Both the position numbers and the translations under genes were made by a program. The notes below the pieces were generated by a model that was given only the letters and a program-made list of their open reading frames with translations, was not told where the DNA came from and searched no databases. From a virus, in UHGV virus genome UHGV-0243142: DNA of 26,786 nt. One strand, written 5' to 3'. Positions 13,383 to 18,347 of this stretch are shown here, piece by piece. The stretch's first letter is position 1, and every line of letters begins with the position of its first letter.

Positions 13383-13406
13383 GACCGCCGCCTGGCGGTT
13401 TTTTTA
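13383..13406 (+). terminator. Intrinsic terminator or attenuator after the capsid gene
   Basis: Hairpin ACCGCC (13384-13389) / GGCGGT (13394-13399), loop GCCT, then T7. A second weaker hairpin AGGCG / CGCCT with a T-rich tail follows at about 13411-13435. Confidence 0.5.
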
Positions 13407-13453
13407 TCCCTGAAGGCGGCGCTGGTCGCCTTTTCCTTTTATGGAGAAAAAAC

Positions 13454-13789
13454 ATGGCGAATAACTATCAGCAGGACGGTACCACACTGGATTATCACAA
13501 TGCGGGTGTTGATGCCGTTTCATCCGGTGCGCTGGTGGCGGTCGGCGGAATTGCCGGGGTGGCACACAGCGATATTCCTGCTGGCGAGTGGGGAACACTG
13601 CATATGGCCGGTGTTTTTGTGCTGCCTAAAGCGGCAGAAGAAATTGCAGCAGGCCAGAAACTGTATCTGGCTGGCGGCAAGCTGACGGTGGCAAAAGGCG
13701 ATGATGCAACGCCAAATCCGGTTGTCGGTTCCGCCTGGGGAGCAGCTGAGGTGGATAATGCTGATGTTGCCGTCCGCCTGGGGTTCTGA
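13454..13789 (+). CDS. Small capsid-associated protein (DUF2190-like, probable decoration protein)
   Basis: GGAG lies 7 nt upstream of the ATG. 111 aa, Gly/Ala-rich (ALVAVGGIAGVAHSDIPAGEWGTLHMAGVFVLPKAA), directly after the capsid gene where decoration proteins are encoded. Confidence 0.55.
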   Translation: MANNYQQDGTTLDYHNAGVDAVSSGALVAVGGIAGVAHSDIPAGEWGTLHMAGVFVLPKAAEEIAAGQKLYLAGGKLTVAKGDDATPNPVVGSAWGAAEVDNADVAVRLGF

Positions 13790-14145
13790 TGAGCCGGTTC
13801 CGGGAACGTTTGGCTAAAGCAGATGCCCGGATTAACCGGGCGTTTGCCGAAGAAGTCCCTGCATGCCTGCAAACGGGTGAAGGCCCGCGTCTGGTGACCG
13901 TGATTTTTGAATCACCGGATGCGCTGTCGGGTGTACCGGGTGGCGGGGAAATTCAGAACCATTCCCCGGCGTTCAGTGCAATGACTGCGGATATTTCCGG
14001 CCTCGAAAAACATGACGGTGTGGTGATCAACACCATCCCTTACCGGGTGACACATATCGGCGCGGATGAAGAAGGGCGGACCCGCGTCACGCTGGCATAT
14101 GGGGAACCCGGCAAAACACAGCCTCAGATCGATAAATGGAGCTGA
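13789..14145 (+). CDS. Putative head-tail attachment protein (lambda FII-like by position and size)
   Basis: 118 aa ORF whose start overlaps the upstream stop (TGATG). Follows the capsid and decoration genes; lambda FII is 117 aa (from memory). No diagnostic motif recognised. Confidence 0.4.
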   Translation: MSRFRERLAKADARINRAFAEEVPACLQTGEGPRLVTVIFESPDALSGVPGGGEIQNHSPAFSAMTADISGLEKHDGVVINTIPYRVTHIGADEEGRTRVTLAYGEPGKTQPQIDKWS

Positions 14146-14146
14146 T

Positions 14147-14803
14147 ATGGCGCGGGAGTCTCGACTGCGACGGGATTTACCCGTCGATATTGATGTGGAT
14201 GTTATCTGGCGAATTGCGGACAGTATCGGTGCGACGCAAAAACAGTTCCGTGCAGCATACTCGCGCGCGCTCAGGCGTACTGCCGCCACGCTGCGAAAGA
14301 AAGCGATGGCGGATCTGAAAGACGGGCTGGCCCCACGCAGTATGGATCTGGTCCGGCGCCGTCTGCTGTCTTTTCGCCTGGACAGGGGATCGCAACTGGA
14401 TAACTTCCGGCTCTGGTTCGGGCTGAATGCCATTAAGGTGAAAGACCTTAAAGGACGAATCAACGGGCGGCTGCGACCGCACCATACCCGGCGTGACCGC
14501 AACACGGGGCGTTTTATTAAAGCACGCCGCCAGGCAGATAACGCCGGATTTTCCCCGAAAGGGAATCTGCTGAGCGAACGGTCGTTTGAAAACGGGGAGG
14601 TGTCCCGTTCAAAACGGGATAATCGCCGGACGGTGGTTATTCGCGATCCCCTGAGCCGCCGGACACGCGAAGCAGAAATGGATATCTACGAACCGATGCT
14701 GAACTACATCGAGGACAACGCATTTGCGGAAGCGATGGAGATTTTTATGCATCACTTTGAAACCGACATTCGCGGGCGCGTAAAAGCCCGCATTTCTGTC
14801 TGA
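14147..14803 (+). CDS. Structural-module protein of unknown function (Arg-rich; possibly gpZ-like neck protein)
   Basis: GGAG precedes ATG 14147. 218 aa, very basic (many Arg). Lies between head and tail modules in the position of lambda Z. Confidence 0.35.
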   Translation: MARESRLRRDLPVDIDVDVIWRIADSIGATQKQFRAAYSRALRRTAATLRKKAMADLKDGLAPRSMDLVRRRLLSFRLDRGSQLDNFRLWFGLNAIKVKDLKGRINGRLRPHHTRRDRNTGRFIKARRQADNAGFSPKGNLLSERSFENGEVSRSKRDNRRTVVIRDPLSRRTREAEMDIYEPMLNYIEDNAFAEAMEIFMHHFETDIRGRVKARISV

Positions 14804-14814
14804 GGTAACGAACG

Positions 14815-16000: not shown

Positions 16001-16017
16001 ATGCCTGGAGAAAAAAC

Positions 16018-17487
16018 ATGTCTCAGTTACATGGCGTTGAAACTATTGAACTCACCTCGGGTACGGTGGCGGTTACCACGATTCAGACCGCCATTATCGG
16101 CCTGGTGGGAACGGCACCTGATGCGTCGGGGGGAACAGCCGCATCGGGATCAGCCGGTACACCCATTCTCGATAACGTTATCGACTTCACTGCAACCATT
16201 AAGGGGCGGCAAGGCAATGTCATCAATGTCGCTGCGCTGGCCGGACAGCCGGCAGCCGAAAATCCTGCTGCGGTTGTGACGTCAGCAAGCTGGGATCCTG
16301 AATCGCTGACACTGAACATCACGCTGGGTTGTGATGAGCACGGTGTTATCACGGCTAAACCCGGAGACGTTGCTGAGGCTGTCGGTGGTGTTGATGGCGC
16401 AAAAGTCAGTGCGAGCGGGCGCGGTGACGGGATTATCCAGCCCTTCAGCCTGCAATTGGCGGGGGGTGAAGATGAACCCTTTCCGCTCAATACGCCGGTG
16501 GCGGTCGTCGGCACCACGCTGTTATCCCGCCTGGGAGAAAAAGGTACGCTGAAACAGGCACTGACAGACATTAACGATCAGCGTAATGCGCTGACGGTGG
16601 TGGTGCGTGTGGCAGATGAAAGCGATGTGGCAAAACGACGCGCAGCGGTACTGAAGGGGATCGGCACCCTGTCTTCAGCGAAATCTGTTACCACGTACCA
16701 GCCGCGTATTGTGATAGCGCCGGGATTCAGTGAGGACGATGCGGTTGGTAAGGGGCTGGAAACCGTGGCCGGGAAATTGCGCGCCGTTGCCTATGTTGAC
16801 TGCGCCTCCGGTGCGACGCTGCAGGAAGTGGTACAGCGTCGTCAGTCCTATGGCGCACGAACTGAACTGTTGCGCCCGCGGGTCCAGGCAAGCGATGCAG
16901 ATGGCCAGCTGGTTTATCGCCCTTACTCTGCGTTCGCTGCCGGGTTGCGCGCCCGTATCGACTTTGAAAAAGGCTGGTGGTGGAGCAAGTCGAACCAGGA
17001 CATCAACAACATCCTCGGTGTTGAGCAGATCGATGAATTTATCCTCGGGGATGAGAATTGCGATGCAAACCTGCTCAACATGCAGAACGTGTCCACCATT
17101 ATCCGCCGGGCGGGTTTTAAACACTGGGGTAACCGCCTGTGTGCTACCAATCCACAGTGGCGTTTTGAATCTGTCCGTCGTACTGCTGATGTTATTGAGG
17201 ACAGCATTCAGGAAACCATGCTGGAGTATGTTGACCGCCCACTGGACCGGGAAAATGCGGATGACATTATCGGTACCATCAATGCCTATATGCGGCAACT
17301 GGTCGGTCTTGGCGCCATATTCGGTGGGCGGGCCTGGCTGGATGAAGAACTGAACACCGCGGAAACCATGGCGTCGGGTGTCCTGTACATCAACTATGAC
17401 TTTGGTCCGAAATCGCCGACTGAACTTATCAGCCTGCGCGTCCGGGTGAACAATAACTATGCGCTTGAGGAGATGCTTGCAGCATGA
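16018..17487 (+). CDS. Contractile tail sheath protein (P2 FI family)
   Basis: GGAG lies 8 nt upstream of ATG 16018. About 490 aa, with N-terminus MSQLHGVETIELTSG typical of sheath proteins. The tube gene follows immediately with an ATGA overlap. Confidence 0.85.
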   Translation: MSQLHGVETIELTSGTVAVTTIQTAIIGLVGTAPDASGGTAASGSAGTPILDNVIDFTATIKGRQGNVINVAALAGQPAAENPAAVVTSASWDPESLTLNITLGCDEHGVITAKPGDVAEAVGGVDGAKVSASGRGDGIIQPFSLQLAGGEDEPFPLNTPVAVVGTTLLSRLGEKGTLKQALTDINDQRNALTVVVRVADESDVAKRRAAVLKGIGTLSSAKSVTTYQPRIVIAPGFSEDDAVGKGLETVAGKLRAVAYVDCASGATLQEVVQRRQSYGARTELLRPRVQASDADGQLVYRPYSAFAAGLRARIDFEKGWWWSKSNQDINNILGVEQIDEFILGDENCDANLLNMQNVSTIIRRAGFKHWGNRLCATNPQWRFESVRRTADVIEDSIQETMLEYVDRPLDRENADDIIGTINAYMRQLVGLGAIFGGRAWLDEELNTAETMASGVLYINYDFGPKSPTELISLRVRVNNNYALEEMLAA

Positions 17488-17990
17488 GCGATAAAAACAC
17501 ACTACGCGTCTGGACCTTCTTCCGGCAGGGGATCCGTATTCAGGGGGCGCATGAATTTACGCCGCCGTCTCTGGCAATTGTTAAAACGGATTTGCGTACC
17601 GGCGCACAGGATGCGCCCACCCCGGTTGATGACGGCATGGAAGCACTGACCTGCCAGGTTAAATTTTATGGGATAGATACGGATATGCTGGCCAGCTTTG
17701 GTTTTGTCAGCGGCAGCCGTTCACGCTTTACGGCTTATCAGGGCTATCTCGGTAACGGCACTGCGCGCGGTACGGTTGAGGAAATTGAGGGGTTTGTACA
17801 GACCGTCACGCCGGATGCGCGGAGTAAGGACACGCTTTCCGAAAATGCCGTGACGGTTGATATTGCCGTCAGCTACTACCGGCAGTCACTGGACGGGCGC
17901 GAACTGTTTGCCATCGACACGGAGCGTTTCGCCCGCCGGGTGAATGGCGTTGATGTGCTTTCTGGCCTGGCTGCCAAAGTGCGTCTCTGA
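17484..17990 (+). CDS. Tail tube protein (P2 FII family)
   Basis: 168 aa ORF directly downstream of the sheath gene, in the conserved sheath-tube pairing. Size matches P2 FII. Confidence 0.8.
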   Translation: MSDKNTLRVWTFFRQGIRIQGAHEFTPPSLAIVKTDLRTGAQDAPTPVDDGMEALTCQVKFYGIDTDMLASFGFVSGSRSRFTAYQGYLGNGTARGTVEEIEGFVQTVTPDARSKDTLSENAVTVDIAVSYYRQSLDGRELFAIDTERFARRVNGVDVLSGLAAKVRL

Positions 17991-18014
17991 TTTTACTGTT
18001 ATCCCACCACTGTA

Positions 18015-18035
18015 ACGGCCTGCGGGCCGTTTTTT
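18015..18035 (+). terminator. Intrinsic terminator or attenuator after the tube gene
   Basis: Hairpin ACGGCC (18015-18020) / GGCCGT (18025-18030), loop TGCG, then T6. Confidence 0.5.
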
Positions 18036-18047
18036 ATGGAGCATCCT

Positions 18048-18347
18048 ATGAGCTTTCCTGGTGAAACCCGCGTTATAAAACTGTATTCCCCCGTATCACT
18101 TGATAATGGGGTCGTGATCAATGAAGTCACCATGCGTGAACCGCTGGTTCGCGATCGCATCACTCATGCCAAAGACCGCGGCAACGAAGAAGAGAAAGAA
18201 GCCCGTATGATTGCGCTGCTGTGCAATCTCAGTGAACAGGATCTCTGGCTGATGACGGCGGCAGATTACTCACAGCTGCTGGATGCCTTTAACGTTTTTA
18301 TGCTCCCGCCCGCGAAGCGACCGAAGGCGGGCTCCTCCGGGCAATAA
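18048..18347 (+). CDS. Tail assembly chaperone (P2 gpE-like), probable frameshift gene
   Basis: GGAG lies 5-6 nt upstream of ATG 18048 (alternative ATG 18036). Small acidic protein between the tube and tape-measure genes. A second frame stays open from 18293 to 18475 across its 3' end (see findings). Confidence 0.6.
   Translation: MSFPGETRVIKLYSPVSLDNGVVINEVTMREPLVRDRITHAKDRGNEEEKEARMIALLCNLSEQDLWLMTAADYSQLLDAFNVFMLPPAKRPKAGSSGQ

Follow-up and report, generated by a model that had tools for sequence, protein, structure and literature searches.

Three short hairpins, each running directly into a stretch of T residues, stand at gene borders in the structural region of the virus genome UHGV-0243142 (26,786 nucleotides (nt); hereafter the window, meaning the whole stretch of DNA analyzed)—T1 after the major capsid gene, T2 between the genes for the baseplate spike gpV and the tail sheath, and T3 after the tail-tube gene. 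We consider that these are probably canonical intrinsic (Rho-independent) terminators, situated within one long late operon driven by a Q-family antiterminator and read through by Q-loaded RNA polymerase. Directly visible in support of this interpretation are the terminator anatomy of the sites, their orientation, their position just past stop codons, their conservation, with covarying stems at T1 and T2, a Q gene and a tR'-like site upstream, and the lack of room for promoters in the hairpin gaps.

Terminator-type hairpins at late-gene borders

T1 (13384-13405, + strand) starts 3 nt past the TAA of a gene encoding a 689-amino-acid fusion of ClpP protease and major capsid protein, and consists of the stem ACCGCC-GCCT-GGCGGT at 13384-13399 followed by a T7 ending at 13405. 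In T2 (15979-16000, + strand), the stem ACCTGC-TGCG-GCAGGT occupies 15979-15994 and the T7 ends at 16000; the first A of the stem is at the same time the final base of the gpV TGA. T3 (18014-18035, + strand) lies 24 nt past the tail-tube stop codon, with the stem AACGGCC-TGCG-GGCCGTT at 18014-18031 and a T6 at 18030-18035. All three combine a perfect stem of 6-7 base pairs (bp), including 4-5 GC pairs, with a 4-nt loop and a fold energy between approximately -11.6 and -13 kcal/mol, their uninterrupted T-runs (T7, T7, and T6) begin at the stem base, and they fill non-coding gaps of 72, 38, and 57 nt, respectively, on the coding strand. An initial annotation of the window had described hairpins with T6-7 after the capsid, V, and tube genes, and its three sites were correctly placed; it overlooked, however, a second hairpin on the capsid side (13412-13433, + strand; GAAGGCGGC-GCTG-GTCGCCTTT), which is followed by a broken T-run (TCCTTTT) to 13440 and sits between T1 and the start of the cement (decoration) gene, just 5' of the cement Shine-Dalgarno (SD) sequence. 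The same annotation had regarded the sites as one repeated punctuation element. We rejected the idea that T1, T2, and T3 are copies of such an element, as their stems differ (ACCGCC, ACCTGC, and ACGGCC) and the 14-mer common to two of the borders reads as a ribosome-binding site whose sequence is not kept in relatives. The flanks of T1 and T2 are, by eye, approximately 71% similar over 35 nt, a likeness that consists mostly of the T-run and SD-like sequence and is weaker in relatives. At the gathering threshold, no Rfam family matched anywhere in the window.

We scanned the window for strict sites, which had to combine a perfect stem (5 bp or longer, 4 or more of the pairs GC) with a 3-8-nt loop and with 5 or more T among the 6 nt that follow. 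Four such sites were recovered on the + strand (T1, T2, T3, and one at 2829) and none on the - strand, compared to a mean of 0.30 per strand and a maximum of 3 in 200 dinucleotide shuffles, and all four fall in non-coding gaps on the coding strand. Enrichment was mild in a loose terminator scan, with 19 and 29 matches in the two window halves versus approximately 14 expected in each.

We then compared the borders across 108 prophage loci (1.09 Mb), made up of 23 from GTDB genomes (gpV 48-100% identity), 80 from IMG/VR (gpV 84-100% identity), and 5 others. GTDB hosts include Citrobacter, Enterobacter, Scandinavium, Pantoea, Rouxiella, Serratia, Rosenbergiella, Tatumella, Izhakiella, Cedecea, and Erwinia. 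The loci, collected through gpV alignment, are phylogenetically non-independent; each border is represented by 40-55 distinct sequences. Strict sites numbered 276 on the coding strand versus 34 on the opposite strand, and 258 of the 276 were at the borders that carry hairpins in the window. Broken down by border, a strict site was present before the sheath gene in 106 of 107 loci, after V in 96 of 108, after the capsid gene in 78 of 93, and after the tube gene in 70 of 97, where the sites that missed the strict test mostly have T4-5. Among distinct sequences, an uninterrupted T-run of at least 6 adjoins the stem base at the capsid border in 46 of 49 and at the sheath border in 43 of 45, and the tube border has T5 or more in 51 of 55. 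The initial annotation had pointed to absence from close relatives as a finding that would count against the elements; strict sites are instead kept at the same borders in the 108 loci.

The stems stay complementary in relatives while loops and flanks vary freely. T2 takes the forms CCTGC/GCAGG, CCAGC/GCTGG, CCCGC/GCGGG, CTCGC/GCGAG, and CCCCCGC/GCGGGGG; in its alignment, 98% of cells are paired and five of the six pairs have changed on both sides, a level reached by none of 500 shuffles, and sliding the register lowers pairing to 25-51%. Variants of the T1 stem include ACCGTC/GACGGT and CCACC/GGTGG, with G.U intermediates. For T1, pairs were scored with RNAalifold on the whole intergenic region, because MAFFT mis-registered the left arms on account of the variable loops. 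In the capsid-cement spacer of 21 diverse relatives, RNAalifold recovered both T1 and the second hairpin, with compensatory changes at 9 of 11 pairs, among them changes from C-G to U-A by way of U.G intermediates. T3 behaves differently: its stem ACGGCC/GGCCGT is near-invariant across approximately 50 distinct intergenic variants, down to 66% tube-protein identity, while variation is seen in its loop (TGCG, TGTG, TTCG, TCCG, TACG, TGAG) and in both spacers, the one after the stop codon and the one leading to the SD. Among close and mid-distance relatives the T3 stem does not vary and so carries no information on selection for pairing, although stems that differ yet remain complementary are found at the T3 position in two relatives (loci L027 and L004). 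Taken as comparative sequence evidence, these patterns support the view that the sites are terminator-type hairpins with a function.

A separate observation concerns the surroundings of T2. Otherwise unrelated E. coli prophages (H11-H14, 77% identity) match window DNA only over 15869-16118, a segment that takes in the 3' end of gpV, T2, and the opening 100 nt of the sheath gene; it is a conserved island rather than a breakpoint.

A probable Q-regulated late operon

Identity of the window is 97.4% to Citrobacter phage Chris1, 97.6% to an E. coli prophage, and 78-79% to more distant E. coli relatives. Judged by its genes, it is a lambdoid-head/P2-tail hybrid, in which lambda-like head genes (terminase, portal, and ClpP-capsid fusion or S49/decoration/capsid) are combined with a P2-like tail order (V, sheath, tube, E-like chaperone, tape measure, U, X, D, W, J, I, H, G). 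Around the hairpins, Pfam assignments run in the order capsid with Clp protease, cement (PF09956), head-tail attachment, two proteins of unknown function, gpV, sheath, tube, and tail assembly chaperone.

Upstream of the late genes, a Q-family antiterminator gene (2026-2736, + strand) is recognized by Pfam PF06323, Phage_antiter_Q (E=2.3e-36; 126 bits versus a cutoff of 25), and 3' of it on the same strand follow a DNA methylase, holins, an endolysin, a spanin-region gene, terminase, and the structural genes. The region just after Q (2737-2860) appears to follow the pR'-tR' layout of lambda, its promoter part having been read by eye. It contains a candidate pR'-like late promoter (2767-2809, + strand; TTGCAA, a 17-nt spacer, and CATATT), in which a second CATATTTGA 11 nt downstream forms a direct repeat that could possibly be a -10-like, sigma-dependent pause element. 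Next comes a tR'-like intrinsic terminator (2829-2854, + strand), the fourth strict-scan match, with the 8-bp stem AAACCCGC-CAATGA-GCGGGTTT leading into a T-run (fold energy -12.6 kcal/mol, z = -2.4). By analogy with the 6S RNA of lambda, this control region would yield a short constitutive RNA of approximately 55 nt.

Beyond this point there is little sign of further promoters. In a consensus scan, which activator-dependent promoters inside coding sequence could escape, no sigma-70-like site was detected on the + strand between 13000 and 26600, and just two weak ones upstream. The late genes overlap or lie at most 11 nt apart, except at the hairpin gaps, at a 39-nt gap before W (22153-22191), which is without a + strand hairpin, and at the chaperone/tape-measure gap. 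The hairpin gaps are too short to accommodate a promoter plus leader; specifically, no activator-binding site and promoter of the P2 type (Ogr-dependent) lies between T2 and the sheath start, where the T-run is separated from the sheath ATG by only 17 nt, part of which is SD. With the late genes near-continuous and no promoter detected among them, the sheath, tube, and later tail genes would be reached through read-through of T1, T2, and T3.

Each hairpin gap leads into a start region with GGAG. The sequence GGAGAAAAAACATG is present exactly twice in the window, at 13443 and 16007 (with no further copies at up to 2 mismatches), identity between the copies extends to the 15-mer TGGAGAAAAAACATG, and both copies end in the ATG of a gene with Pfam support, namely cement (PF09956) and sheath (PF04984/PF17482). 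The initial annotation was thus accurate in reporting an identical 14-mer at the opening of the decoration and sheath genes. Ribosome-binding site and start together occupy 13442-13456 for cement and 16006-16020 for sheath (both TGGAG-AAAAAAC-ATG, + strand); T3 is followed not by GGAGAAAAAACATG but by GGAG-N6-ATG, belonging to the tail-assembly-chaperone gene (18038-18050, + strand; GGAG-CATCCT-ATG). Among distinct relatives, GGAG is found 5-9 nt 5' of the ATG in 49 of 49 cement, 43 of 45 sheath, and 53 of 55 chaperone sequences, and the mean A fraction of the spacer between SD and ATG is 0.71, 0.67, and 0.36, respectively. The U-run passes directly into UAUGGAG or UAAGGAG in relatives (UUUUUUUAUGGAG). 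Outside the Citrobacter lineage, the exact 14-mer pair was seen at a single locus. We considered and rejected concerted evolution between its two copies, given that the spacers of cement and sheath genes differ from one another in relatives and that some close relatives have altered just one copy. On these comparisons, the 14-mer is best described as a strong stand-alone ribosome-binding site (GGAG plus an A-rich spacer), conserved in kind and not in sequence.

In the mechanism that we propose, unmodified RNA polymerase would stop at T1, T2, and T3, and only Q-loaded polymerase would pass on to the sheath, tube, tape-measure, baseplate, and fiber genes. Q-lambda has been described as a nozzle that keeps hairpins from forming in the exit channel of the polymerase (PMC9388147). 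Each late-gene block may in this way come under strict control of Q and, in the lysogen, be shielded from stray transcription or from transcription that starts in a moron. On mRNA from polymerase that has read through, the hairpins would fold behind the enzyme and could bar 3'-to-5' exonucleases, so that the stretches up to the end of the capsid gene and up to that of the sheath-tube pair might be long-lived. The gaps would also break the translational coupling used elsewhere in the operon, so that the next gene would rely on a strong stand-alone SD right after the U-tract; the A-rich 14-mer version would serve two very abundant proteins, cement and sheath. By analogy with lambda, protein ratios would depend mainly on translation initiation and, at a second level, on the stability of individual mRNA segments. 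Sampson et al., in 1988, reportedly traced the widely differing expression rates of lambda late genes mainly to translation initiation.

Similar hairpins in other phages

Lambda offers a close parallel in regulation. Like the window, it has a single Q-antiterminated late operon in which short GC hairpins with a T-run occupy the few gaps flanking the major capsid gene, with an SD directly after. The D|E gap contains GCCGC-CTGT-GCGGC followed by T7, the E|FI gap ATGGCCC-TTCG-GGGCCAT followed by TGTTTCT, and the I|J gap AAACCGCC-TGCG-GGCGGTTT...ATTTATGGAG. The two part ways in the tail: that of lambda is of the siphovirus type, and the 15-nt V|G gap behind its tube gene V holds no hairpin, whereas the window carries a P2-like tail module bracketed by T2 and T3. 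We describe the hairpin sequences of the two phages as analogous rather than homologous. Among the relatives, one with a lambda-type head (L005) has a hairpin on either side of the capsid gene, and one with P2 gene order (L004) has a hairpin with T7/8 3' of V, 5' of the sheath gene, and 3' of the tube gene, with a Q gene upstream. Lambda-type heads also have a conserved hairpin with a T-rich tail (AACCCGCC-TATGCG-CGGGTT TTCTTTTG) inside coding sequence near the portal/protease junction, at 4485-4504 in lambda (L111), 391-410 in L005, and 243-262 in L021; at the equivalent junction in the window (11297-11315) there is a hairpin without a T-run.

P2, by contrast, shares the tail module and differs in its regulation. 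Its late genes are served by four activator-dependent promoters, with annotated terminators at operon ends (P2 record), and before FI a separate terminator is followed by approximately 100 nt that take in the activator site, the start of transcription, and that of FI. The P2 FII-E gap resembles that of T3 in its tube-to-chaperone position, its length (56 versus 57 nt), and its GC hairpin (8 bp in P2). Unlike in the window, however, this hairpin is without a U-tract, FI-FII-E-T-U-D is transcribed from an activator-dependent promoter without antitermination, and a promoter rather than a fusion of terminator and SD precedes FI. There is no hairpin after V in P2 because V overlaps W. We extended the comparison to seven further Peduoviridae, drawn as a spread by tblastn over GenBank phages, among which 524 records have a P2-type tube gene, since an IMG/VR search with the P2 tube protein returned only near-identical copies of P2. 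A stable post-tube GC hairpin is present in seven of these eight phages (P2 plus seven), with stems of 8-12 bp and mostly no U-tract; among the seven others, the hairpin is followed by no U-tract in four, by UUUCUUU in one, and by T5 (an annotated terminator) in one, and the last is without a gap. In this small sample of sequences, the post-tube hairpin appears as a general feature of P2-type tail modules, and the clean U-tract as characteristic of the Q-regulated hybrids.

Terminators next to abundant structural genes are known from phages with other modes of transcription. In f1/M13 (gene VIII) and in T7 (T-phi, after gene 10), a terminator lies right after the major coat gene. The late gene clusters of SPP1 are delimited by predicted stem-loop terminators (PMC6316719), and ONT-cappable-seq of LUZ7 showed that more than 60% of termination sites allow substantial read-through, shaping transcript isoforms, a study that also cites inefficient terminators in T7 (PMC9163698). 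These systems resemble the window in placing a hairpin terminator just 3' of the most abundant structural gene, which raises its mRNA relative to downstream genes; they differ in using multiple promoters or a phage polymerase, with no processive antiterminator of host RNA polymerase, and, unlike T2, none has a terminator immediately 5' of an abundant gene. A further precedent is phage L (P22-like), where terminators within the late operon are known, their "roles not known", and attenuation or the blocking of non-antiterminated transcription has been suggested (PMC8022706). Like the window, phage L has a predicted Rho-independent terminator in an antiterminated, single-promoter late operon, at the end of the head-gene block. 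In contrast, it is a podovirus and its terminator is an in-silico prediction only, whereas the window has three or four sites with comparative and covariation support. T1-T3 are a well-supported new example of a widely seen but poorly understood kind of element, intrinsic terminators within an antiterminated phage late operon.

Alternative roles and neighboring features

Several considerations weigh against reading T1, T2, and T3 as terminators traversed by Q-loaded polymerase. No transcript maps of Chris1 or of the window's prophage family were found in the literature searched, so that termination, read-through, and stabilization are all inferred. With short stems of 6-7 bp, the terminators are possibly just moderately efficient for unmodified polymerase, and the candidate late promoter, which like the pause element was read by eye, has 8 of 12 consensus matches and falls under the promoter-scan threshold. 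The individual parts of the proposal also leave some of the pattern unexplained: a role as exonuclease barrier does not account for retention of the U-tract, a role as insulator does not account for the choice of these particular genes, the segment stabilized by T2 would end with the low-copy gpV to no obvious benefit, and the invariance of the T3 sequence across genera is not accounted for by any terminator model. Lastly, the contrast between P2 and the hybrids rests on eight Peduoviridae, one of them with a T-run.

The initial annotation had raised the possibility that partial terminators set the stoichiometry of structural proteins. In such a scheme, a fixed fraction of polymerase would stop at leaky attenuators despite Q, and stepwise decreases in mRNA abundance would establish the ratio of abundant to rare proteins; we regard this as a doubtful account of the sites as a whole. 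It suits T3, which has the high-copy sheath and tube genes on its 5' side and low-copy genes (chaperone, tape measure, and baseplate) on its 3' side, and partly suits T1, which comes after the major capsid gene; moreover, leaky terminators tune phage expression in LUZ7 (PMC9163698), and attenuation is among the roles put forward for the phage L terminator (PMC8022706). T2, however, would act in the wrong direction, cutting the mRNA of the high-copy sheath relative to that of the low-copy spike gpV, and T1 would similarly cut the mRNA of cement, which is presumably abundant. In addition, the operon's Q antiterminator is expected to suppress such terminators, and the retention of a strong A-rich SD specifically at cement and sheath points to translational control. 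Sampson et al. (in 1988) are also reported to have found roughly uniform levels of lambda late mRNA.

A second alternative dispenses with termination. The hairpins might act as RNA-level elements that guard processed ends (3' for capsid and tube, 5' for cement and sheath), with the U-run as an unstructured, S1-binding translational enhancer beside the SD. The Peduoviridae lend this some credibility, as their post-tube hairpin mostly lacks a U-tract and so would have a role independent of termination; likewise, the U-run always adjoins the SD, and the second capsid-side hairpin is conserved with covariation despite having no clean U-run. We nevertheless think it unlikely, because the near-universal uninterrupted T-run at the stem base is the exact geometry of a terminator, beyond what an enhancer needs, and the same anatomy is seen at the tR'-like site after Q. 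A transcript-stabilizing role, the second idea of the initial annotation, is plausible by analogy with the P2-like post-tube hairpins that are mostly without a U-tract.

The hairpins had also been proposed as boundaries used in mosaic exchange. Change points in identity to the window cluster at 13300-13400 (capsid|cement) in many collinear relatives, where crude clustering shows that the type of second capsid-side hairpin tends to travel with the cement allele and that one T1 stem type is combined with several types of second hairpin and of cement. Relatives that have the P2 gene order carry a hairpin with T7 both at the end of V and 5' of the sheath gene, bounding the W-J-I-H-G block, and in one of the loci (L017) the V-end and pre-sheath hairpins have the same stem, CCCGC/GCGGG. 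The mosaic proposal therefore has merit at the capsid|cement border and for the relocation of W-J-I-H-G, but it finds no footing at 15979 or 18014, where change points do not cluster in collinear relatives; further clusters lie within genes, at 11900-12300, 13800-14000, 16100-16450, and 17600, with 11900-12300 and 16100-16450 the largest. A reading in which the hairpin and T-run sequences are kept chiefly as recombination linkers, through microhomology at module borders and with any transcriptional effect secondary, is accordingly very unlikely in our estimation. Stem covariation argues for selection on pairing and not on DNA sequence identity, and as covariation marks pairing as the selected property, exchange is more likely a by-product; furthermore, the loci are non-independent, and the lower identity of cement could reflect faster evolution and not exchange. 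Least credible of all is that the sites are chance matches, or neutral relics of operon ends inherited from ancestral P2-like or lambda-like modules and devoid of function—a pre-sheath terminator could derive from a layout such as that of P2, whose V operon has a terminator before the FI-FII operon, yet four sites against 0.3 expected, every one on the coding strand, together with retention across genera through compensatory substitutions while non-coding flanks diverge freely, speak strongly against it.

Identity also drops sharply at two places in approximately 50 loci each, inside the sheath gene (16100-16450) and in the linker/scaffold part of the ClpP-capsid fusion (11900-12300). From the alignments, we take these to be variable or exchanged internal domains and not gene-border mosaicism.

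Returning to terminators read through under Q, a more speculative extension, for which the odds seem to us distinctly unfavorable, is that the unit of hairpin, U7, and SD forms a portable "stop-and-restart" cassette, the terminator half of which would owe its existence solely to the phage's processive antiterminator. On capture of a P2-type tail module by a Q-driven lambdoid late operon, the plain hairpins would gain U-tracts and replace promoters, turning formerly separate operons into Q-gated blocks, and microhomology between hairpin/T-run sequences would allow blocks to move, as for W-J-I-H-G from after V to after D. If this were true, antitermination would be the glue that wires modules of different origin together. 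A preprint on the Bartonella gene transfer agent (10.1101/2024.11.20.624540) has a similar idea in its title.

The window's prophage family provides a clean test case, with three short, strongly conserved sites at defined gene borders. The pre-sheath site T2 falls outside simple attenuation, and P2-like phages, where the hairpin is kept and the U-tract is mostly absent, form a natural contrast; if the U-tract tracks the presence of an antiterminator, this would reveal the way in which modules taken from elsewhere are rewired by phages into a single regulated transcript. There are also practical consequences, in that the sites and the A-rich GGAG starts are compact parts for tuning expression in engineered phages, and that, for prophage annotation, a predicted terminator at such a position does not mark the end of a transcription unit.

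Some further features of the late region were noted. In one related locus (L110, positions 1762-12320; E. coli PapRG-04-4, NZ_CP049201), a satellite-like element of approximately 10 kb is lodged in the late operon just 5' of gpV. It encodes an integrase, a helix-turn-helix regulator, BRO-N and Icd-like proteins, a RepA helicase, and SSB, and brings capsid, decoration, and small-terminase genes of its own. The element is similar to the "helper-embedded satellites" described previously, in a paper that contains no RNA-seq bearing on T1-T3 (PMC10111431). Within the window, a low-GC segment between the lysis and terminase genes (6397-6768, GC 0.40) encodes a DUF6694 lipoprotein-like protein, and looks like a moron inserted in the late operon. 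The gene is followed by a strong terminator-type hairpin of its own (6746-6768, + strand; AGGCCGC-ATTTA-GCGGCCT plus T5) with a fold energy of -19.4 kcal/mol (z = -6.1), after which comes a 209-nt gap.

At the other end of the operon, just past the last tail-fiber-assembly gene, lies a hairpin with an 11-bp stem (ATCCGCCACAG...CTGTGGCGGAT) and a 16-nt loop (26329-26366). We rejected it as the late-operon terminator, because its T-rich tail is on the - strand only and belongs to the convergent gene at 26378-26620, which it should terminate; there is no obvious + strand terminator at the end of the late operon. Finally, the 102-nt gap between the chaperone and tape-measure genes (18347-18450) has a TTTTTTG run at 18417-18423, 3' of the chaperone stop codon, and probably holds a frameshifted extension analogous to E+E' of P2.

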